Shown here one piece after another: positions 498 to 40,637 of a stretch of DNA of 40,637 nucleotides. Positions within the stretch are counted from its first letter, which is position 1, and every line of letters starts with the position of its first letter. The position numbers were made by a program, and so were the translations under genes. The notes beneath the pieces are model-generated. The model was not told where the DNA came from. It worked only from the letters and a program-made list of their open reading frames with translations, and did not search any database. The DNA is from a virus (Duplodnaviria; Caudoviricetes): positions 1-40,637 of the IMG/VR virus record IMGVR_UViG_3300020045_008796; one strand, 5' to 3'.

Positions 498-1202
498 ATG
501 AACCAACAGCCAATTGAAAAGCGGATCTCTCGGGATGATGGCATCCTTAGCGTCCACAGTATCTTTCACACCATCCAAGGCGAAGGCCCGTTCTGCGGAA
601 CGCCGGCAGTCTTCATTCGCCTCGCGGGGTGCAACCTCCAATGCCCGGCATGCGACACGGACTACACCTCCAGCCGCTGGGACTCCGGGCCGCTCGGAAT
701 CCTTGACAGCGTCCGCGAGCAATCAGCCTATGGACTTGTGGTCATTACAGGCGGAGAACCTTTCCGGCAAGACCTTGCCAGGCTCCTCAACGTCCTGACA
801 GATGCTGGATACTACGTCCAGATCGAAACCAATGGCACGCTCGAGCCAGCCGATGTCCCGTACTCGCTGGTGACTGACATTCGCACCGGGGTATACGTCG
901 TCTGCAGCCCGAAGGCTGGCAAGGTGCATCCTCGCATCGCTGAGGTGGCCTGCTGCTACAAATACGTGCTCTCCCAGGACAGCATCCACGCCGATGGGCT
1001 ACCCTTGCGCGCCCTCGAGCATACTGCCAGCCCGTTCGTGGCTCGGCCTCCAAAGAATTGGCATCGCCCGATCTACGTCCAGCCGGTGGACTCGAAGGAC
1101 GAGACAACCAATGGGCAGCATCTTAAGGCTGCCATCAACTCCTGCATGAAGAATGGTTACATCCTTCAGCTGCAGATCCACAAACTTATCGACATGGAGT
1201 AA
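498..1202 (+). CDS. queE: 7-carboxy-7-deazaguanine synthase (radical SAM)
   Basis: IFHTIQGEG, FIRLAGCNLQCPACDTDY (CxxxCxxC), ITGGEP, IETNG, SPK, LQIHK; ATG at 498 follows AGGAG. Confidence 0.95.
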   Translation: MNQQPIEKRISRDDGILSVHSIFHTIQGEGPFCGTPAVFIRLAGCNLQCPACDTDYTSSRWDSGPLGILDSVREQSAYGLVVITGGEPFRQDLARLLNVLTDAGYYVQIETNGTLEPADVPYSLVTDIRTGVYVVCSPKAGKVHPRIAEVACCYKYVLSQDSIHADGLPLRALEHTASPFVARPPKNWHRPIYVQPVDSKDETTNGQHLKAAINSCMKNGYILQLQIHKLIDME

Positions 1203-1205
1203 GAC

Positions 1206-1970
1206 ATGAAAAAAGCCTTGGTAATTCTTTCCGGTGGGCAAGACTCGACCACCACCTTGTTCTGGGCAAAGGAGCGTTTCGACGAGGTCCACGCCATTAC
1301 CTTCGACTACGGCCAGCGCCACAGAATCGAGCTGGACGCCGCAGTTAAGGTGGCGGCAATGGCAGAGGTCGCCAGCCATGAGATCGTCGCGCTGCCGGGC
1401 GTTTTGCGCTCGACAAGCCCCCTTACCAGCGACGCCGAGCTGGAGCAGTACGAGGACGCCAACCAGATGGAAGCGGTCATCGGCAATCGGGTGGAGCTGA
1501 CCTTCGTCCCCATGCGAAATACCTTCTTCTTTACAGTGGCCATGAACCGTGCTGTCGCCCTGGGCGCCAACCACTTGGTGACCGGCATCTGCCAAGAAGA
1601 CAACGCCAACTACCCCGACTGCACGGAGAAGTTTCGCAACGCCTTCGAGCGCATGGCGAACCTGTCCCTGGGCACCGAGCGCTTCTTCATTCATGCTCCG
1701 CTGATGTATCTCAGCAAAGCCGAGACCGTGATGATGGCTAAGGCCATGCCGGAGTGCTGGGAGGCGCTGGCATATTCGCACACCAGCTACGACGGCAAGT
1801 ATCCCCCGACCGACAAGAACCATTCCAATGTGCTGCGCGCCTACGGCTTCGAAGTTGCTGGCTTGCCCGACCCGCTGGTGCTGCGTGCTCACCGCGAAGG
1901 CTTGATGGAGTTGCCGGATACTCCGAACTACCGTAACATTCAACTCTCACTGTTCAACGAGGAAAACTGA
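1206..1970 (+). CDS. queC: 7-cyano-7-deazaguanine synthase QueC (variant lacking Zn-binding cysteines)
   Basis: PP-loop LSGGQDS, FDYGQRH, FVPMRN, YPDC, PLMYLSKAE. Confidence 0.92.
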   Translation: MKKALVILSGGQDSTTTLFWAKERFDEVHAITFDYGQRHRIELDAAVKVAAMAEVASHEIVALPGVLRSTSPLTSDAELEQYEDANQMEAVIGNRVELTFVPMRNTFFFTVAMNRAVALGANHLVTGICQEDNANYPDCTEKFRNAFERMANLSLGTERFFIHAPLMYLSKAETVMMAKAMPECWEALAYSHTSYDGKYPPTDKNHSNVLRAYGFEVAGLPDPLVLRAHREGLMELPDTPNYRNIQLSLFNEEN

Positions 1971-1971
1971 A

Positions 1972-2409
1972 ATGCCCATCCAAGCCCACCGCTACCACGA
2001 CATCTCCGTAGGCCACCGCGTCTATAACCAAGGCTCCAAGTGCGAGATGCTTCATGGCCATAACTACCGAATCCACTTCAACGTCGAAGCCCAGGAGCTG
2101 AACGAAATCGGCATGGTGCTGGACTTCGGCATCATCAAGTCGACGCTCTGCATGTGGATCGAAAACAACTGGGACCATAAGTTCTTGATCTGGGAGCAAG
2201 ACCCATGGTCGCGCTACTTGCTCGAGATCGACCCGACTGTTGTGTGGACATCCTTCAACCCGACCGCCGAGAACATGGCCAAGTTCCTCGTCGAAGTCGT
2301 CGGCCCTGAGCTGCTGGCTGGCCATGCCTGCAAGCTGGTCTCCGTGGCCGTCGAAGAGACGCGCAAGTGCTCCGCCTCCTTCAACCTTCCACAAGGCTAC
2401 AAAGAATGA
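1972..2409 (+). CDS. queD: 6-carboxy-5,6,7,8-tetrahydropterin synthase
   Basis: GHR...KCEMLHGHNY, GMVLDFG, WDHKFL, NPTAENMA, EET. Confidence 0.93.
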   Translation: MPIQAHRYHDISVGHRVYNQGSKCEMLHGHNYRIHFNVEAQELNEIGMVLDFGIIKSTLCMWIENNWDHKFLIWEQDPWSRYLLEIDPTVVWTSFNPTAENMAKFLVEVVGPELLAGHACKLVSVAVEETRKCSASFNLPQGYKE

Positions 2410-3419
2410 AAGTCCTAACTAATCAAGATGTCCGTGCTCTTGCAATCGATCTTGCCTCACGTGCCTCTGTTCTTGGCCTGGGCGCGAAGCTATTTCCTAT
2501 CCCGCGCGGAGGCATCCCGGCAGCCTATGCGATGCAGGCTATCGAGTACCGCTTTGAGATCGTGGAAGATCCAGAAGATGCAGACTTCTTCCTCGACGAC
2601 ATCATCGACTCCGGCTCAACCATGCAGCAATGGTGTGATGAATACCCCGGCAAGCCCTTCGTTGCCCTTATCGATAAGACTGATCCCGAGTGCCCCTACC
2701 GCGACGAATGGGTGCGCTTCCCCTGGGAGGGCACAGAGCGCTCGGAAGACGATACCATCGTCGGAACGCTGACCAATCGTATCACCGAGGCTGGTGCGCC
2801 CTTCCTTGCCAACGACAACATTGCTGCCTTCTTGCAAGGCGGCGAGCTGGACTTGCTGCAGGAGGAGGTGGCCCGTCGAGCAGAGCACTTCCTTCGTGGG
2901 CTTGTGATCGATGTCGATAATGACCACAATACCGTCGGGACGGCCAAGCGCATCGCCAAGATGTACCTCCGCGAGGTGTTCAAAGGTCGTTACCTCCAGC
3001 CGCCAGCCATCACGGACTTCCCCAATGCCAAGGGGCTGGACGAGATGTACATGACCGGGCCGATTACGGTGCGCTCTGCTTGCAGCCACCACTTTGTCCC
3101 GATCGTCGGACGCTGCTGGATTGGCATCATCCCAGGCGAGCGGGTCATCGGGCTGTCCAAGTTCAACCGCATCGTCGAATGGGTTGCCAGCCGTCCGCAG
3201 ATTCAGGAAGAATTGGTCATGCAGATCGCCGATTTCATTGAACAGCAGATCCAGCCGAAAGGCTTGGCGGTCGTCGTGGAAGCCACCCACCTCTGCATGA
3301 CGTGGCGCGGCGTGCGCGAGCCAATGGAAGCCAAGATGACGACCAACGTAATGCGCGGTGCCTTTCGCGATAAGCCGGAGGCCCGAGCAGAGTTCATGAC
3401 CTTAGTTGCCAAGGGATGA
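2406..3419 (+). CDS. folE: Fusion: N-terminal type I phosphoribosyltransferase (Gpt-like) plus GTP cyclohydrolase I
   Basis: ATGA overlap with queD. N-domain IPRGG, LDDIIDSGST, WVRFPWE; C-domain SACSHHFVP, IGLSKFNR, QIQEEL, HLCMTWRG. Confidence 0.92.
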   Translation: MKVLTNQDVRALAIDLASRASVLGLGAKLFPIPRGGIPAAYAMQAIEYRFEIVEDPEDADFFLDDIIDSGSTMQQWCDEYPGKPFVALIDKTDPECPYRDEWVRFPWEGTERSEDDTIVGTLTNRITEAGAPFLANDNIAAFLQGGELDLLQEEVARRAEHFLRGLVIDVDNDHNTVGTAKRIAKMYLREVFKGRYLQPPAITDFPNAKGLDEMYMTGPITVRSACSHHFVPIVGRCWIGIIPGERVIGLSKFNRIVEWVASRPQIQEELVMQIADFIEQQIQPKGLAVVVEATHLCMTWRGVREPMEAKMTTNVMRGAFRDKPEARAEFMTLVAKG

Positions 3420-4336
3420 AACTATACCTAGCCGGTATCTATACAGCGAACTTCAAGATAGGGGGTTCGCTGTATAACCGCCTCACCGAGAACGAAAAGA
3501 GGCAACGCGAGAGCGCGACCAACTTGCTTGAGTCGTTCCACTACATCCACCGCCAGTCCTTTGTGGATAGCATCCGCGGGGACGGCCGAAAGGTCTTTCT
3601 CGACTCCGGAGCTTTCTCCGCCTTTACCAAGGGGGTGTCTGTTGACATCCCCAAGTATTGCGACTACATTAAGCGCAATAAAGACATCATCGAGCATGTC
3701 GACGGAACCATTCTGGCATCTGTGCTGGACGGCATCGGCGACCCGCTCAAGACCTACCAGAACCAGCTTGAGATGGAGCGCCTCGGCGTGCGTCCGCTGC
3801 CTTGCTTCCACTATGGCGAAGACGAGCGGTACCTCGAGTGGTACATTGCCAACTACGACTACATCACTATCGGCGGAATGGTGCCCATCTCTACACCACA
3901 GCTCAAGATATGGCTTGACCGGATCTGGGAGAAGTATCTCACCGATGGTTCCGGCAGGCCCAGGGTCAAGGTTCACGGCTTCGGTTTGACGACCGTGTCT
4001 CTGATGGAGCGATACCCTTGGTATTCGGTTGACTCCTCGTCCTGGGTGCAGATTGCTCGGGTCGGCGGCATGATGCTTATGCCAGAGGCGCGCGTCATCA
4101 ACGTCTCTGACCAGAGCCCGCAGCGCCGCGTAGAAGGCCAGCATATCGATACGCTGACGCCTCCCCTGCGGAAAGCCGTCGAAGACAAGCTGCGCGCCTG
4201 CGGTGTTGATACGGATCGGATGCGGGAGACTTACCTCTCGCGGTGGTGCTACAATATCTGGGCATTCGACCAGCTCGGCATTCAACACTTCGAGGCCGAC
4301 CCAAAGTTCGTGCCCGATCAAATAGGACTATTCTGA
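3416..4336 (+). CDS. dpdA: TGT-fold DNA guanine transglycosylase (DpdA-like)
   Basis: FLDSGAFS, LDGIGD, IGGMV, VHGFG, SVDSSSW match TGT catalytic/substrate motifs; no C-terminal CxCxxC Zn motif of tRNA TGTs; embedded in the que cluster. Confidence 0.85.
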   Translation: MKLYLAGIYTANFKIGGSLYNRLTENEKRQRESATNLLESFHYIHRQSFVDSIRGDGRKVFLDSGAFSAFTKGVSVDIPKYCDYIKRNKDIIEHVDGTILASVLDGIGDPLKTYQNQLEMERLGVRPLPCFHYGEDERYLEWYIANYDYITIGGMVPISTPQLKIWLDRIWEKYLTDGSGRPRVKVHGFGLTTVSLMERYPWYSVDSSSWVQIARVGGMMLMPEARVINVSDQSPQRRVEGQHIDTLTPPLRKAVEDKLRACGVDTDRMRETYLSRWCYNIWAFDQLGIQHFEADPKFVPDQIGLF

Positions 4337-5286
4337 TGCTTGACTCCCTCCGCTTTGTGCAGGGGGCGGTCGCGAAGAAAGACTTCGTGCCGTCTCTCAC
4401 CCATTTCCGAATCCAAGGCGGTACCATTCGCGGGTTCAATGGCATGCTGGCGCTCTGCTGCCCAATCGGTGTCAACCTCGACTGCAGTCCGAAGGCGCTG
4501 CCCTTTGTCAAGGCCATCCAAACGTGCAAGGATACGATCCAGCTTCACTTGACCCAGGCCGGGCGGCTGTCCGTCAAGTCTGGGAAGTTCAAGGCGCTGA
4601 TCGATTGCATCCCGGACGAATACCCAAGCGTGGAGCCCGAAGGTGTGGTCATGCCACTCAACGGGGAGCTGCTGAAGGTGCTCAAGCTCCTGACTCCATT
4701 CATCGCAGACGATGCCTCTCGCCCCTGGGCGCGCGGTATCCTTCTTCGTGGGCAGTCTGCCTTCGCGACAAACAACATCGTGCTGATTGAGCGCTGGCTT
4801 GGATACACATTCCCGGTCGAACTCAACATCCCGAGGTCAGCCGTGGTTGAGATGATCCGCATCGGGGAAGAGCCCGAGCGCCTCCAGATTTGCGAGAACA
4901 GTGTGACCTTCCACTTCTCCGGCAACCGCTGGCTGCGGACGCAGACCTACTCTACCCAATGGCCGGACGTTGGACGCATCCTCGACAAGCCTGCCAACCC
5001 TCTCGCGATTCCTGATGGCTTGTGGGAGGCAGCTGCTGACCTCGCCCCGTTCGTCGACGAGCTTGGGCGCCTCTTCCTTTCGAACGGTATGGTGACCACA
5101 GGGCATGGCGAGGGTGCCGGAGCTTCCATCGAAGTGCCGGGAATCCTTGATAATGGGTGTTTCAACGTTCAGCAGGTGATGCTCCTCAAAGGCGTCGCCA
5201 AGACAATCGATATGACTGGTTACCCTGGGCCGTGCGCCTTCTTCGGTGATAAGATTCGCGGAGCCCTTGTCGGGATGCGCGTATGA
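4336..5286 (+). CDS. DNA polymerase III beta-clamp (DnaN)-like sliding clamp
   Basis: TGATG overlap with dpdA. Segments recall DnaN: KKDFVPSLTHFRI, LSVKSGKFK, EYPSV, ASRPWARGILL...ATNN, WPDV, C-terminal ALVGMRV; 316 aa. Confidence 0.75.
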   Translation: MLDSLRFVQGAVAKKDFVPSLTHFRIQGGTIRGFNGMLALCCPIGVNLDCSPKALPFVKAIQTCKDTIQLHLTQAGRLSVKSGKFKALIDCIPDEYPSVEPEGVVMPLNGELLKVLKLLTPFIADDASRPWARGILLRGQSAFATNNIVLIERWLGYTFPVELNIPRSAVVEMIRIGEEPERLQICENSVTFHFSGNRWLRTQTYSTQWPDVGRILDKPANPLAIPDGLWEAAADLAPFVDELGRLFLSNGMVTTGHGEGAGASIEVPGILDNGCFNVQQVMLLKGVAKTIDMTGYPGPCAFFGDKIRGALVGMRV

Positions 5287-7271
5287 GAGTTGATAGCATC
5301 GGGATGTTCTGGGAAGACGTGGCCAGCGGTGGCAGAGGTGCCAAGGCGATCCGCGTCATGCCACCCATCCCGGAGACCGGATGGCTTCCGCCCACCTACT
5401 TACCCGACCTCTCTCGGGCGAAGGTCATCTCCATCGACTGCGAAACCAAAGACCCTGAGCTGCTGGAGCATGGCCCAGGCTGGGCGCGCGGCAAGGGGCA
5501 TATCGTCGGCGTCTCAGTCGGAGCCGATGGTGGAGGCCGGTGGTACTTCCCGCTTCGTCATGAGGTTGAGCCGGAGCATAACTGGCCGCCTGAGATGGTG
5601 CTTTCCTGGCTGCGCGACACCCTCGCTAACCCCGCACAACCCAAGGTCGGGGCCAACCTAATGTACGACGTTGGATGGCTGCGCCACGAGGGCGTAACCG
5701 TGGCTGGCGAGCTGGTGGATGTGCAGTACGCGGAGGCTTTGCTGGACGAACGGGCGGAGGTAGCGTTGGAAGTGCTGGCGCAGAAGTACCTCGGCGAAGG
5801 CAAAGAGTCCAGCCTGCTCTACCGCTGGTGCGCTGACTTCTATGGCGGCAAACCGAACGGCGCGCAGCGCGCGAATATCTACCGCTCCCCTCCCAGGCTG
5901 GTCGGCCCATACGCGGAGAGCGATGCTGACCTACCGCTGCGCGTTGCCATCGCCATGTATCCGCACCTCGTCCGCGAAGGAATGATGGATCTCTTCCGCA
6001 TGGAATGCGACCTCATCCCTATGCTGATCGATATGCGCTTCGCAGGGGTGACAGTCAATATCCCACGCGCCGAGGAGCTACGTGATACCTTGGCGGCCCG
6101 AGAGAAGATCGAAGAAGCCAAGCTGAGTAGCCTAATCGGATTCCATGTGGACATCAACTCCGCCGATACGCTGGCTAAGGCGTTCGACAAGGTCGGCCTC
6201 AATTACAACAAGACAGCCAAGGGCAAACCGAGCTTCACAAAGGACTTCCTCAAGTCCGTTCAACATCCGGTGGCAGACCATATTCGCGAGATTCGGAAGC
6301 TCTCCAAGCTGCGCGGTACCTTTGTCGAGTCCTATATTCTCAACTCGCATGTCAACGGACGGGTCTTCGGCCAGTTCCATCCGCTGCGAGGCGACGAGGG
6401 CGGCACGCGCTCGGGTCGCTTTAGCAGCTCAACGCCCAACCTGCAGAACCTGCCAAGCCGGGACGACGAGCTAGCTCCACTGGTGCGAGGCCTCTTTATT
6501 CCCGACCCTGGGCACCAGCAGTGGCGCAAGTACGACTATAGCCAGATCGAATACCGCTTTCTCGCCCACTTTGCTGTCGGGCCTATGTCGGACGAAATCC
6601 GCGCCATCTTCAATGCCGATCCGGATACCGACTACCACGTCATGACTCAGGAGCTAGTGCATCGGCAGACTGGGCAGCTCCTTGATCGCAAGCCAATCAA
6701 GAACATTAACTTCGGACTGATCTACGGCATGGGCGTTGATAAGCTGGCCGGAGGGCTTGGCCTATCTGTCAAGGCCGGCAAGGAGCTGTTCGCCGCTTAC
6801 CACAAGGGGGCTCCGTTCGCCAAGGCAACGATGGAAGCCTGCTCGGAGGAAGCTCGGGATACTGGCATCATCAAGACCATCCTTGGCCGCAAGTCGCGTT
6901 TCGATCTTTGGGAGCCTCAGTCCTGGGGAAGCGAGGGGATTGCCCTGCCCTACGAGAAGGCGATCCTCCAGTATGGCCAGATCCGGAGAGCCTACACGCA
7001 CAAAGCTTTGAACCGCCGGTTGCAGGGCAGCGCCGCTGATATGATGAAGATGGCCATGTGGAAGTGCTACAAAGATGGCATCTTCAACGAGACCGGCATT
7101 CCCCGCTTGACCGTGCACGACGAGCTGGACTTCAGCGACCCAGGGGGCAAAGCAGCTGCCTTCAGAGAGATGAAGCATATCCTCGAGAATGCCATGCCCT
7201 TGCGCATCCCAATCAAGGCAGACTGCGACGTCGGGCCAGACTGGGGACACGTGGAAGAACTAAAAGAGTAG
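5283..7271 (+). CDS. polA: Family A DNA polymerase with 3'-5' exonuclease domain
   Basis: Exo IDCET, NLMYD, YAESD; GRFSSSTPNLQN; motif A DYSQIEYR; motif B KNINFGLIYG; LQGSAAD; motif C VHDE. Confidence 0.96.
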   Translation: MRVDSIGMFWEDVASGGRGAKAIRVMPPIPETGWLPPTYLPDLSRAKVISIDCETKDPELLEHGPGWARGKGHIVGVSVGADGGGRWYFPLRHEVEPEHNWPPEMVLSWLRDTLANPAQPKVGANLMYDVGWLRHEGVTVAGELVDVQYAEALLDERAEVALEVLAQKYLGEGKESSLLYRWCADFYGGKPNGAQRANIYRSPPRLVGPYAESDADLPLRVAIAMYPHLVREGMMDLFRMECDLIPMLIDMRFAGVTVNIPRAEELRDTLAAREKIEEAKLSSLIGFHVDINSADTLAKAFDKVGLNYNKTAKGKPSFTKDFLKSVQHPVADHIREIRKLSKLRGTFVESYILNSHVNGRVFGQFHPLRGDEGGTRSGRFSSSTPNLQNLPSRDDELAPLVRGLFIPDPGHQQWRKYDYSQIEYRFLAHFAVGPMSDEIRAIFNADPDTDYHVMTQELVHRQTGQLLDRKPIKNINFGLIYGMGVDKLAGGLGLSVKAGKELFAAYHKGAPFAKATMEACSEEARDTGIIKTILGRKSRFDLWEPQSWGSEGIALPYEKAILQYGQIRRAYTHKALNRRLQGSAADMMKMAMWKCYKDGIFNETGIPRLTVHDELDFSDPGGKAAAFREMKHILENAMPLRIPIKADCDVGPDWGHVEELKE

Positions 7272-36285: not shown

Positions 36286-36994
36286 ATGAAAATTGCTGTG
36301 CTCTTCGATGGGGCTGGATTGGCAAGGCTTGGCCTCGAACAGGCTGGGCATACTTGCGTCGGGGTAGAGCTTGACCCGCATAAGCATCATCTGTCTGCCT
36401 TTGTCGGAGAGGGTGACTGCCGCCTAGCCGACGTCCGCTCCTTTGACCTCACCGGCTTTGATGCGGTGTGGGCCTCCCCGCCTTGCCAGAAAAGGAGCCA
36501 AGCCAGAACGCAAGGAGCACCCCGCAGCATCTACGCGGATGACCTTGTCGACTGGGCGCTGGCTTTAGATACGGCCGTCTTGTGGGTGGAGAATGTTGTT
36601 ACCCCCGGCGAGCAATTTGGTGCCCTCTATAATGCCGCTCAATTCCATGAGCCCCCCCCTGCAGATCAGGAATCGTGTAATCGGAGGACACTACCAAGCA
36701 CCAGAAGTTCTTCGCCCCTACACCAGAGCAATCAAGGGAGTCTGCCCAGCGATTACTGCAACAGAATACCGGGGATGCGCAAGCGACCGGAGGCGCGCTT
36801 CTCGCTTTTATGGGCGTCGCCTGACACTAGAAGAATGCGCCTATCACCAAGGCTTCTCCATCCCGGAAGAGTGGGCTACCCCTCCAGAGTGGTTCACTGG
36901 GTCTCTGGTAGCTTGGCGCAATCAGCAGTACGAGGCTATCGGAAATGGCGTCCCTGTTTACATGGCGCGTGCGTTTGGGGAGGCCTATAAATGA
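36286..36994 (+). pseudogene. C5 cytosine DNA methyltransferase, frameshifted at a C8 tract (36652-36659)
   Basis: Motif I LFDGAG, IV SPPCQ, VI ENV in first frame; VIII QIRNR and X IGNGVP in the shifted frame, whose stop overlaps the helicase ATG. Confidence 0.85.
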
Positions 36995-38655
36995 AGCTCC
37001 GCGATTACCAAGACGCTGCGGTCGATAGCATCTTCCAATACTTCGCCAACGGCGGACAGGGTAACCCGATCGTGGCGCTGCCCACCGGTACCGGCAAGTC
37101 TGTGGTCATCGGGGCGTTCATTCGGCGCGCCATGGAGCTCTACCCTGGGACGCGCGTTATGAAGCTGACCCACGTCAAAGAGCTGATCGAACAGAACCTT
37201 GAGAAGCTGCTGGCCATCTGGCCGACTGCCCCTGCCGGTGTTTACTCTTCTGGCCTCAAGCGCAAGGATATCGGGCAGCCGATCATTTTCGGCGGCGTTG
37301 GCACTGTGGCACGCGGCACGCCAGACCTCTTCGGGCGGATTGATTTGCTCTTGATTGACGAATGCCATCTGGTCTCTCCCAAAGAGGACACGATGTACCA
37401 GATCGTTATCCAAGGGCTGAAGGAGATCAATCCGCACCTCAAGGTCATCGGCTTCACGGCCACGCATTACCGGCTCGGTCATGGCATGCTGACAGAGGAG
37501 GGCGGACTCTTTACAGATGTCTGTTTCGACATGACGCGCCTTGAGGCTTTCAACTGGCTGCTGTCAGAAGGCTACTTGTCGCGGCTGGTGCCAAAGCCCA
37601 CTTCCGTCCAGCTCGATGTCAGCGATGTCCACATCCATGGCGGTGAGTTCAAGCAGAACGAGCTTCAGGCTGCCGTCGACAAGGACGAGGTCACCTACGC
37701 CGCGGTTCAGGAGATGCTGGCTTATGGCCATGATCGCGCGCATTGGTTGATCTTCGCCTCCGGTATCGAGCATGCCGTTCACGTAGCTGCCATGCTGGAC
37801 AGCCTGGGTGTCTCTGCCACCTATGTCCATTCGAAGATGCCCGACAACCAGCGCGATGCCGCCATCCTTGACTTCAAACGCGGCAAGTTCCGGGCCATGG
37901 TCAACAACGGCATCTTGACCACTGGCTTCGACTTCCCAGGCATCGACCTCATCGGCATGCTACGCCCGACGCAATCCCCTGGTCTATGGGTTCAGATGCT
38001 TGGACGAGGTACGCGCCCTGTCTATGCCCTGGGCTATGATCTCAGCACTGCCTCCGGTCGCATGGATGCCATCTATTACGGCGGCAAGCAGAATTGCCTC
38101 GTGCTGGACTTCGCTGGCAATACAAAACGCCTAGGGCCGATTAACGACCCCGTCCTGCCCAGACGTAAGGGCAAGGGCGGCGGAGTCGCCCCTGTGCGGT
38201 TATGCGAGGTCTGCGGAACCTATAACCATGCCAGCGTCCGCTTCTGTGTTGAGTGCGGTGCCGAGTTCCCGCGCGAGGTCAAGATCCGCCAGCATGCGGG
38301 GACTGACGAGCTCATCTCGGATGGCGCCCCGAAGACAGAAGTCTTCAAGGTTGACCGAGTCATCTATGGCGAGCATCGAAAGGAGGGAAGACCCCCGACA
38401 ATTCAAGTAAGCTACTTCTGTGGTCTGCGCATGTTCAAAGAATGGGTCTGCCTCGAGCATGAAGGCTACGCCGGCAAGAAGTCTCGCGATTGGTGGCGCG
38501 AGCGCGCTTTAGATGAGCCACCTGAAACAACCGCCGAGGCTTTGGCCGGTCTCGATGTCCTTCGCACGCCAACCCATATCCGAGTCTGGTTGAAGCCCAA
38601 GTACGATGAAGTGCTGGCCTACGACTATACCGGAACATCCTTTGGAGAATCATAA
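36991..38655 (+). CDS. Superfamily 2 helicase, RadD/YejH-like, with Zn finger
   Basis: LRDYQ, PTGTGKS, DECH, TAT, LTTGFD, QMLGRGTR, LDFAGN, CxxC...CxxC. Confidence 0.92.
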   Translation: MKLRDYQDAAVDSIFQYFANGGQGNPIVALPTGTGKSVVIGAFIRRAMELYPGTRVMKLTHVKELIEQNLEKLLAIWPTAPAGVYSSGLKRKDIGQPIIFGGVGTVARGTPDLFGRIDLLLIDECHLVSPKEDTMYQIVIQGLKEINPHLKVIGFTATHYRLGHGMLTEEGGLFTDVCFDMTRLEAFNWLLSEGYLSRLVPKPTSVQLDVSDVHIHGGEFKQNELQAAVDKDEVTYAAVQEMLAYGHDRAHWLIFASGIEHAVHVAAMLDSLGVSATYVHSKMPDNQRDAAILDFKRGKFRAMVNNGILTTGFDFPGIDLIGMLRPTQSPGLWVQMLGRGTRPVYALGYDLSTASGRMDAIYYGGKQNCLVLDFAGNTKRLGPINDPVLPRRKGKGGGVAPVRLCEVCGTYNHASVRFCVECGAEFPREVKIRQHAGTDELISDGAPKTEVFKVDRVIYGEHRKEGRPPTIQVSYFCGLRMFKEWVCLEHEGYAGKKSRDWWRERALDEPPETTAEALAGLDVLRTPTHIRVWLKPKYDEVLAYDYTGTSFGES

Positions 38656-38846
38656 TGACCAAGCTAGCCGAAACCCGAGACCTCTTGCACGCCGATCTGA
38701 TCCGAAACCAAATTGTCCGGAGCTGCCTCAACTGCGAGTGCTTCGACAAACAGAAAGGCGAATGCCTTGAATTCAAGATGCGCCCACCGGCCGAGGTGAT
38801 CGTCTTCTCTTGCAAAGAGAACTGGATTGGCGAGATCCCTTTCTAG
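38655..38846 (+). CDS. Small Cys-rich protein ending in EIPF
   Basis: TAATG overlap with helicase; CLNC...C...PP.EVIV..C. Confidence 0.75.
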   Translation: MTKLAETRDLLHADLIRNQIVRSCLNCECFDKQKGECLEFKMRPPAEVIVFSCKENWIGEIPF

Positions 38847-40516: not shown

Positions 40517-40637
40517 GGAGTTAGAAATGACTGAAGAAGCGAAGACCGAAGCCGTCGAGAAGGCACCCAAAGTTGAACAAAACGGCGTGTCCCGTCCGAA
40601 GGTTGGCACTGCCACCGAACGCGTCTGGGCGATTGCC
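40517..40637. repeat. Exact terminal direct repeat (copy 2), containing the first 37 codons of the 11..373 gene
   Basis: Identical to 1-121; ATG at 40527 corresponds to ATG at 11. Confidence 0.95.

Follow-up and report, generated by a model that had tools for sequence, protein, structure and literature searches.

A phage 7-deazaguanine locus with clamp-type peptides

We analysed a 40,637-nucleotide stretch of DNA (the window; IMG/VR record IMGVR_UViG_3300020045_008796, Caudoviricetes) that represents a whole phage genome with direct terminal repeats and is 100% complete; positions 40519-40637 repeat the sequence from base 1 onward, as expected for the terminal redundancy of a complete genome. 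Our subject is its predicted DNA-modifying enzyme DpdA, which ends in a peptide resembling those that dock proteins on the bacterial β clamp, together with the β-clamp-like gene that follows dpdA. The genes between 498 and 7271 lie on one strand in the order queE-queC-queD-folE-dpdA-clamp-polA (Table 1). FolE, QueD, QueE and QueC lead to free preQ0, which DpdA inserts into DNA after replication, and from this gene content dPreQ0 is predicted in the virion DNA. Stop and start codons overlap at folE/dpdA (ATGA), at dpdA/clamp (TGATG, with the clamp gene starting at the ATG at 4336) and at clamp/polA (ATGA).

Three proteins of this locus carry a candidate peptide. QueC ends in NYRNIQLSLFNEEN directly before its stop codon, and QLSLF lies within this end. 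DpdA ends in VPDQIGLF (DQIGLF at 4316-4333, stop codon at 4334-4336), and the polymerase begins MRVDSIGMFWED, which includes DSIGMFW. A preliminary description had reported these peptides and the stop-to-start overlaps from the sequence, and on re-reading all of them were correct.

Table 1 Genes and candidate motifs of the 7-deazaguanine and replication locus (E, expect value)
Feature	Position	Strand	Evidence
queE (radical SAM CDG synthase)	498..1202	+	phrog_2076 E 9e-61; no clamp-type motif at termini
queC, preQ0 synthase, variant without CxxC zinc ligands	1206..1970	+	PF06508 E 2e-50; TIGR00364
QueC tail QLSLF, exact bacterial clamp-binding consensus	1941..1955	+	sequence; 17/120 homologues with pentamer/hexamer forms
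queD	1972..2409	+	PF01242 E 1e-26
folE with N-terminal phosphoribosyltransferase-like domain	2406..3419	+	PF01227 E 2e-48; phrog_8995 E 2e-5
dpdA, DNA 7-deazaguanine transglycosylase (phage DpdA type)	3416..4336	+	phrog_887 E 2e-79
DpdA C-terminal QIGLF, candidate clamp-binding motif at the tip of a 16-residue coil	4319..4333	+	
AGGA, likely ribosome-binding site of the clamp gene, over the Ile-Gly codons of the DpdA tail	4324..4327	+	
Phage β-clamp-fold protein, 316 aa, three domains, altered peptide pocket	4336..5286	+	phrog_947 E 3e-70
Family A DNA polymerase with 3'-5' exonuclease (polA)	5283..7271	+	PF00476 E 4e-65, PF01612 E 4e-11
Polymerase N-terminal DSIGMFW, non-canonical candidate clamp-docking motif	5292..5312	+	

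We estimated how often such peptides would arise by chance. At a distance of up to 15 residues, the ~110 protein ends would be expected to show an exact QL[SD]LF 0.0016 times, so the QueC motif beats chance on its own. For the looser canonical pentamer at the same ends the expectation was 0.27, and the DpdA and polymerase peptides therefore needed conservation among homologues, which both of them show. QLSLF and QIGLF fit the Q-phi-x-[LM]-[FL]/hexamer definition of PMC11139829. The polymerase head DSIGMFW does not match this canonical consensus, its Gln being absent; its conserved core is G[LMFI][FW]W. A scan of the open reading frame ends of the window found no further clamp-type peptide, save one GLF in an antisense frame, and the termini of QueE, QueD and FolE carried none.

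Conservation of the DpdA tail

DpdA is 53-54% identical to the DpdA proteins of Queuovirinae, and the top Foldseek matches of its predicted model, which has the TGT barrel, were arcTGT and DpdA 7ui4 (E 3e-5). Against the bacterial DpdA model NF041059 it scored 20.9 bits, under the curated cut-off of 200. D63 and D206 are invariant in 54 DpdA homologues, and we infer that they correspond to the catalytic Asp95 and Asp256 of PMC10164549. In the same alignment L305 was conserved in 51 and F306 in 53 of the 54 homologues, and the tail Gln stood at position 302 in 24 and at 303 in 25. Most of the linker in front of the tail varies: in 15 of the 17 columns from 285 to 301 no residue exceeded 25/54, and F298 was conserved in 38. 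In the DpdA model the last helix ends at residue 290 and residues 291-306 form a coil, the final six with a predicted local distance difference test score (pLDDT) of 58.

Part of this tail is probably constrained at the RNA level. Among Phe-ending tails, position -3 was Gly or Glu in 56 of 62 cases of coupling, where the start of the following gene directly adjoins the dpdA stop, and in 3 of the 16 uncoupled cases (Fisher p 5e-8; 22 tails with non-terminal Phe were left out). The uncoupled tails retained LF or IF, in forms such as QVSIF, QISLF, QITLF and QMSLF that lie nearer to QL[SD]LF, and the tails used all six Leu codons and both Phe codons. This free codon use, together with the contrast between coupled and uncoupled tails, indicates that selection keeps LF for the protein and the Gly mainly as a signal in the RNA. 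We rejected the idea that the whole tail is a Shine-Dalgarno artefact, which explains position -3 only and probably also the spacing of QELF tails.

The same comparisons led us to reject a single D-x-I-G-[LM]-F motif, which the preliminary description had proposed as a variant tuned to the phage clamp and shared by DpdA and the polymerase. The Asp is found in only 12 of 54 DpdA homologues (D301), the Gly or Glu follows the Shine-Dalgarno sequence of the next gene, and the polymerase version lacks the Gln and has a conserved Trp. QIGLF is one conservative change from the QLGLF of E. coli Pol II, and the DpdA of locus L002 ends exactly in QLGLF. Given this similarity and the role of the Gly as RNA signal, the IGMF likeness between DpdA and the polymerase appears to be partly coincidence. 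The Pol II peptide ending in QLGLF binds the E. coli β clamp at 1.7 µM (PMC11139829). Distant DpdA proteins, at a level of ~27% identity and from phages with their own DnaN and loader genes, end in QRRLF (Dp-1), QGKLF (Flasso) and QKTLFTF (L171).

We also predicted the complex of the clamp with DpdA residues 275-306, which scored 0.48, classed as a weak pass, against 0.01 for the best control. The pass mark was reached by 116 of 157 solved pairs and by 2 of 215 mismatched pairs; scores up to 0.60 account for only 18 of the 157 solved pairs but for both passing mismatches. Runs agreed in at least 88% of contacts, with a partner pLDDT of at least 39.

DpdA tails accompany clamp genes

The comparison drew on 375 complete DpdA reading frames (isolates, viral contigs and metagenome-assembled genomes), which formed 258 clusters at 90% identity. 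We excluded as uninformative ten clusters, 7 of them tailed, that had no ParB and less than 3 kb of downstream sequence. Of the 100 clusters beside a clamp of the window's type, 92 had [LI]F no more than four residues from the stop, with a background of 9/865 frames at the same loci, and 97 ended in a hydrophobic pair (background 103/865 other frames). A second clamp type, in most cases accompanied by a loader, stood beside 87 clusters; 74 of these ended in a hydrophobic pair or F-x-L (background 163/895) and only 20 in [LI]F. No tail was found in the 46 clusters that lie beside a ParB-like gene without a clamp. Where neither neighbour was present, 2 of 14 clusters were tailed: L107, which has no clamp within 10 kb but carries one elsewhere in its genome, and L233, a fragment of 5 kb on which a loader gene lies. 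Whole-record searches of the tail-less kinds found no clamp in 22 viral records, 9 of them at least 90% complete, or in 5 isolates; positive controls were detected in 3/3 cases. Of the 13 ParB-like neighbours that we scanned, 9 matched ParB_N and one more GmrSD_N.

These counts bear out the co-occurrence of tail and clamp gene, which the preliminary description had named as a check (92/100 with a clamp, 0/46 beside ParB-like genes without one). The association appears strong, with few independent transitions behind it. The form of the tail also differs between clamp clades: with the loader-bearing clamps, 45 of the 87 tails of DpdA belong to a G-F type and GFF stands near the start of 13 of 16 uracil-DNA glycosylase-family proteins, suggesting that the motif dialect shifts with the clamp. 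A separate DpdA profile search at the level of 50% representatives carried no genomic context and was excluded from the co-occurrence counts; among its best 150 matches were 139 proteins of 240-440 aa, 52 of them with a terminal [LI]F and 92 with a hydrophobic pair or F-x-L at the end.

Clampless phage dpdA genes (L160, L183, L184, L296-L372) mostly stand beside a ParB-like gene, recalling bacterial DpdB, and several loci of this type hold two or three dpdA paralogues. The clamp-bearing Cellulophaga phage phiSM has a tail-less DpdA, with which a viral scan gave no matches. A CxxCxxCC protein of this phage, likely DpdM (L161:2466-3119), ends in QVNLF and its ParB-like protein (L161:3839-4303) ends in SVNLF.

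The gene after dpdA models as a β clamp

The protein encoded directly after dpdA matched no family in Pfam or NCBIfam, TIGR00663 included, so it is a divergent β-fold homologue (phrog_947) and not a DnaN equivalog. A profile of 61 homologues matched β clamps of the PDB (E 6.5e-6), and hhalign aligned the protein with four DnaN sequences over 312 columns at a probability of 96.6. Its AlphaFold2 model had a pLDDT of 92.5, and Foldseek matched it to 8xla with a template modelling (TM) score of 0.83 (E 8e-20); every listed match was a β clamp. The preliminary description had called this gene DnaN-like, and the three-domain fold of the model agrees.

To examine the peptide pocket, we took the residue list of PMC11139829 and aligned the phage clamp with E. 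coli DnaN and with the 61 homologues. R129 (E. coli R152) was kept in 59 of the 61, T145 (T172) in all 61, L150 (L177) in 48, P210 (P242) in 58, M314 (M364) in 43 and R315 (R365) in 46. N277, equivalent to E. coli N320, was N or Q in 48, and the equivalent of Pro363 is Gly. To judge from this alignment, the phage protein appears to retain much of the peptide pocket of β clamps, alongside some replaced positions. A loader gene was found in 0 of 100 loci of the window's clamp type and is present in Dp-1 and R26L. This loader-less clamp family is widespread (366 isolate records) and unstudied, and the tails would give its first ligands.

A conserved head on the polymerases of clamp loci

Among the polymerases of clamp loci (distinct sequences, unclustered, with family B called by weak matches), 35 of 37 in family A and 73 of 76 in family B have the motif G[LMFI][FW]W close to their start; it was absent in 4/4 clampless PolA relatives at 30-38% identity. 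The head peptide is thus conserved and accompanies the clamp gene, another point on which the preliminary description had asked for comparison. All five misses are from distant clamp phages; three of them start with MFFD or MSFLFD. Two of these three and the polymerase of PA73 have ends with QAVMFF, QDLF-like or ALSFF stretches. Since it is kept on two unrelated polymerase families, the head behaves like a docking module, and it probably docks on the sliding clamp.

The polymerase gene after the clamp alternates between family A and family B in the otherwise syntenic loci L003-L087. Two of the four clampless relatives, those of phages phi_M6 (L397:1519-3513) and Sonora (L402:1471-3462), start with QPPLF and QAPLF, which look like host-clamp motifs.

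An occasional tail on QueC

QueC scored 167.4 bits against TIGR00364 (cut-off 150.3). C-terminal zinc-binding cysteines are a usual feature of QueC and were seen in other QueC sequences. In the window their position reads PPTDKNHSNVLR, and none of the 120 nearest homologues has CxxC after residue 150. A Q-led tail occurs in only 17 of these 120 homologues (69-98% identity) and, within clamp loci, in 6 of 97 clusters. Some tails are pentamers (QLSLF, QLELF, QLDLF) and others hexamers (QLELDL, QLNLEL, QLELDF, QMEMLF). That both canonical forms occur points to selection for clamp binding; the tails need 7 changes on the tree, and a single origin is also possible. QLELDF was the phage-display winner for E. 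coli β (PMC11139829).

The preliminary description had let QueC ride the clamp together with DpdA. The QLSLF of QueC is real and goes beyond chance, but a general part for QueC is not supported: with tails in so few homologues and clamp-locus clusters, we rejected the view that the family as a whole is tethered in this way. The peptide probably serves a few lineages as an optional, additional tether. For the QueC of the window, this peptide makes clamp binding a possibility at slightly less than even chances, and an effect on modification is rated lower.

Proposed mechanism and alternatives

We consider it likely that the DpdA QIGLF peptide docks in the pocket of a β-type clamp, most likely that of the phage itself. 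DpdA, the predicted exchanger of G for preQ0, would thereby be concentrated on freshly copied phage DNA and would scan along it via the clamp. At its N-terminus the polymerase would hold on to this clamp by the peptide R-x-D-x-x-G-[LMFI]-F-W, carried on a Pro/Lys-rich linker, and DpdA would occupy the ring's other pocket or use clamps that stay behind. Because the window genome encodes no loader, the ring would be loaded by the host loader or without one. QueC QLSLF may raise the supply of preQ0 near DpdA in a few lineages. The tether would improve speed and selectivity, with chemistry that could proceed without it. The literature that we consulted does not explain how the phage enzyme locates phage DNA or how it modifies up to ~1/3 of guanines per infection. 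A clamp tether, if true, would offer a mechanism and extend the range of clamp clients to base-exchange enzymes. It would also connect phage DpdA with the need of its bacterial counterpart for the ParB-like DpdB.

A number of results weigh against docking on the phage clamp. Two pocket positions are replaced, His175 by Val or Ile and Gly174 by an invariant Asn, and searches of the window genome and of the full records of 9g, PA73 and BP63 found no clamp loader. The canonical Q-phi-x-[LM]-[FL] fits only 29 of the 100 tails of the window's clamp clade, 42 having a shorter QxLF, and the DpdA tail is absent despite a clamp in L144, L041 and phiSM. A quick DpdA tree of 116 rows, from which the tails had been left out, shows only 4 changes of the clamp label, one of them due to the miscoded L107; the co-occurrence thus has two or three independent events behind it. 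The complex prediction, a check suggested in the preliminary description, passed for the DpdA tail, but the pass is weak and gives no interface, and model memory may contribute to the score because solved clamp-peptide complexes exist. When 9g DpdA was overexpressed with Gat-QueC in E. coli, 18 +/- 10% of plasmid Gs were modified with no phage clamp (PMC6884629), which speaks against a need for the phage clamp in modification; the host clamp was present in this experiment. Clampless, tail-less Rosebush has ~28% of its Gs modified and Dp-1, with clamp and tail, ~1.7% (PMC6884629). An interaction of T4 α-glucosyltransferase with the clamp gp45, to which we return below, was reported once and was not reproduced in pull-downs, in which the enzymes were C-terminally tagged (bioRxiv 10.64898/2025.12.06.692756).

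We weighed three other explanations. The DpdA and QueC tails might bind mainly the host β clamp, leaving the phage clamp to serve the polymerase only, via its non-canonical head. This would suit the closeness of QIGLF to Pol II QLGLF, the exact ending of L002, as well as the QueC tails, which follow the bacterial pentamer/hexamer consensus and include one QLELDF, the lack of a phage loader in the genome and the activity of 9g DpdA in uninfected E. coli (PMC6884629). Yet clampless phages, to which the host clamp is also available, have the tail in 0/46 clusters, the tail dialect tracks the phage clamp clade and 71 of the 100 tails of this clade fall outside the host consensus, which makes host binding improbable as the main role. 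We give somewhat less credence still to the possibility that no clamp is bound, the DpdA end owing its form to the ribosome-binding site and the stop-start junction that overlap it, or its Leu-Phe packing on DpdA or on an oligomer. The tie between coupling and Gly/Glu at -3 is as an RNA signal would predict, CAG-GAG (Gln-Glu) spells AGGAG, and the conservation of F298 suggests possible packing of some tail residues against the core. However, the Leu and Phe codons vary freely, uncoupled tails keep LF or IF and shift towards the canonical form, the QRRLF of Dp-1 is followed by a terminator and no gene, and the model leaves the final DpdA residues unpacked.

The least probable alternative is a full assembly line, in which polymerase, DpdA and QueC ride the phage clamp at the fork and preQ0 is channelled onto nascent DNA. 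A β dimer has two peptide pockets, for which three ligands would compete, and preQ0 is a free base; moreover, 103 of the 120 nearest QueC homologues have no tail, nor do QueE, QueD and FolE. What speaks for it is the presence of three peptides in one genome, the switching of QueC tails between pentamer and hexamer, which points to selection, and the channelling of preQ0 from Gat-QueC to DpdA suggested for 9g (PMC6884629).

Relation to known systems

Clients of the bacterial β clamp (E. coli Pol II with its QLGLF, Pol IV, Pol III α and Hda) likewise carry Q-phi-x-L-F at a flexible end, (PMC11139829); the phage clamp has the bacterial β fold and appears to keep most residues of subsite I. In contrast to those clients, the one proposed here is a base-exchange enzyme, many tails read QxLF and the polymerase motif lacks the Gln and ends in Trp. 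The clamp also differs from the bacterial one: it is phage-encoded, has 50 residues fewer, carries other residues in place of His175 and Gly174 and comes without a loader gene. On these comparisons DpdA is likely a new client class for a known clamp-docking mechanism. A comparable case is DNMT1 on PCNA, where a short motif ties an enzyme that modifies DNA after replication to a sliding clamp; it differs in serving eukaryotic maintenance methylation via a PIP box and not anti-restriction base exchange. T4 α-glucosyltransferase and gp45 embody the same idea of a DNA-modifying enzyme held by the phage clamp in replication (bioRxiv 10.64898/2025.12.06.692756), with enzyme and clamp families different from those of the window.

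The 7-deazaguanine clusters of 9g, CAjan, iggy and Dp-1 (PMC6884629, PMC10484667, bioRxiv 2023.04.13.536721) hold the same preQ0 genes and DpdA; the window differs from them in its podovirus-like head and injection genes and in having PolA instead of PolB. The order dpdA-clamp-polymerase is already present in the annotation of phage 9g, so the gene arrangement was known and the peptides are what we claim. The word 'clamp' is absent from the main text, as available to us, of these three papers and of PMC10164549. We found no description of the DpdA tail in the literature searched, subscription journals and supplements being mostly outside its scope.

Bacterial DpdA needs DpdB, a ParB-like ATPase, for preQ0 insertion; the model of DpdB encircles DNA, and DpdB has been proposed to aid movement on DNA (PMC10164549). 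That system likewise gives DpdA a DNA-encircling partner, whereas the dpdA of the window has no adjoining ParB-like gene and a β clamp with a candidate docking tail instead. Across phage loci the clamp and ParB-like arrangements exclude each other almost fully. The bacterial need for DpdB and this split suggest two routes that keep DpdA on DNA. Extending this, we offer only tentatively, as a reading more doubtful than the docking itself, that DpdA may depend on a DNA-encircling partner for which phages have two mutually exclusive solutions, a ParB-like analogue of DpdB or a terminal peptide that plugs into a clamp. Peptide dialects would then be particular to clamp clades and shared with replication proteins, and some lineages would add QueC, coupling base synthesis and exchange to replication.

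Other features of the genome

The portal, head and injection genes of the window are podovirus-like, and its nearest isolates are Pseudomonas, Variovorax and Stenotrophomonas phages of ~42 kb. The phosphoribosyltransferase-like domain at the N-terminus of FolE might, speculatively, recycle the guanine released by DpdA. A C5 methyltransferase gene at 36286-36994 is split, changing frame where eight C stand in a row near 36652; it is unsplit, in one frame, in loci L001, L130 and L014, and the split may reflect an assembly error, inactivation or phase variation. A Cys-rich protein of 63 residues, encoded at 38655-38846, ends in EIPF, and the clamps of PA73 (L179:4863-6005) and L043 end in DDIPF; we take these ends to resemble the bacterial SSB tail.

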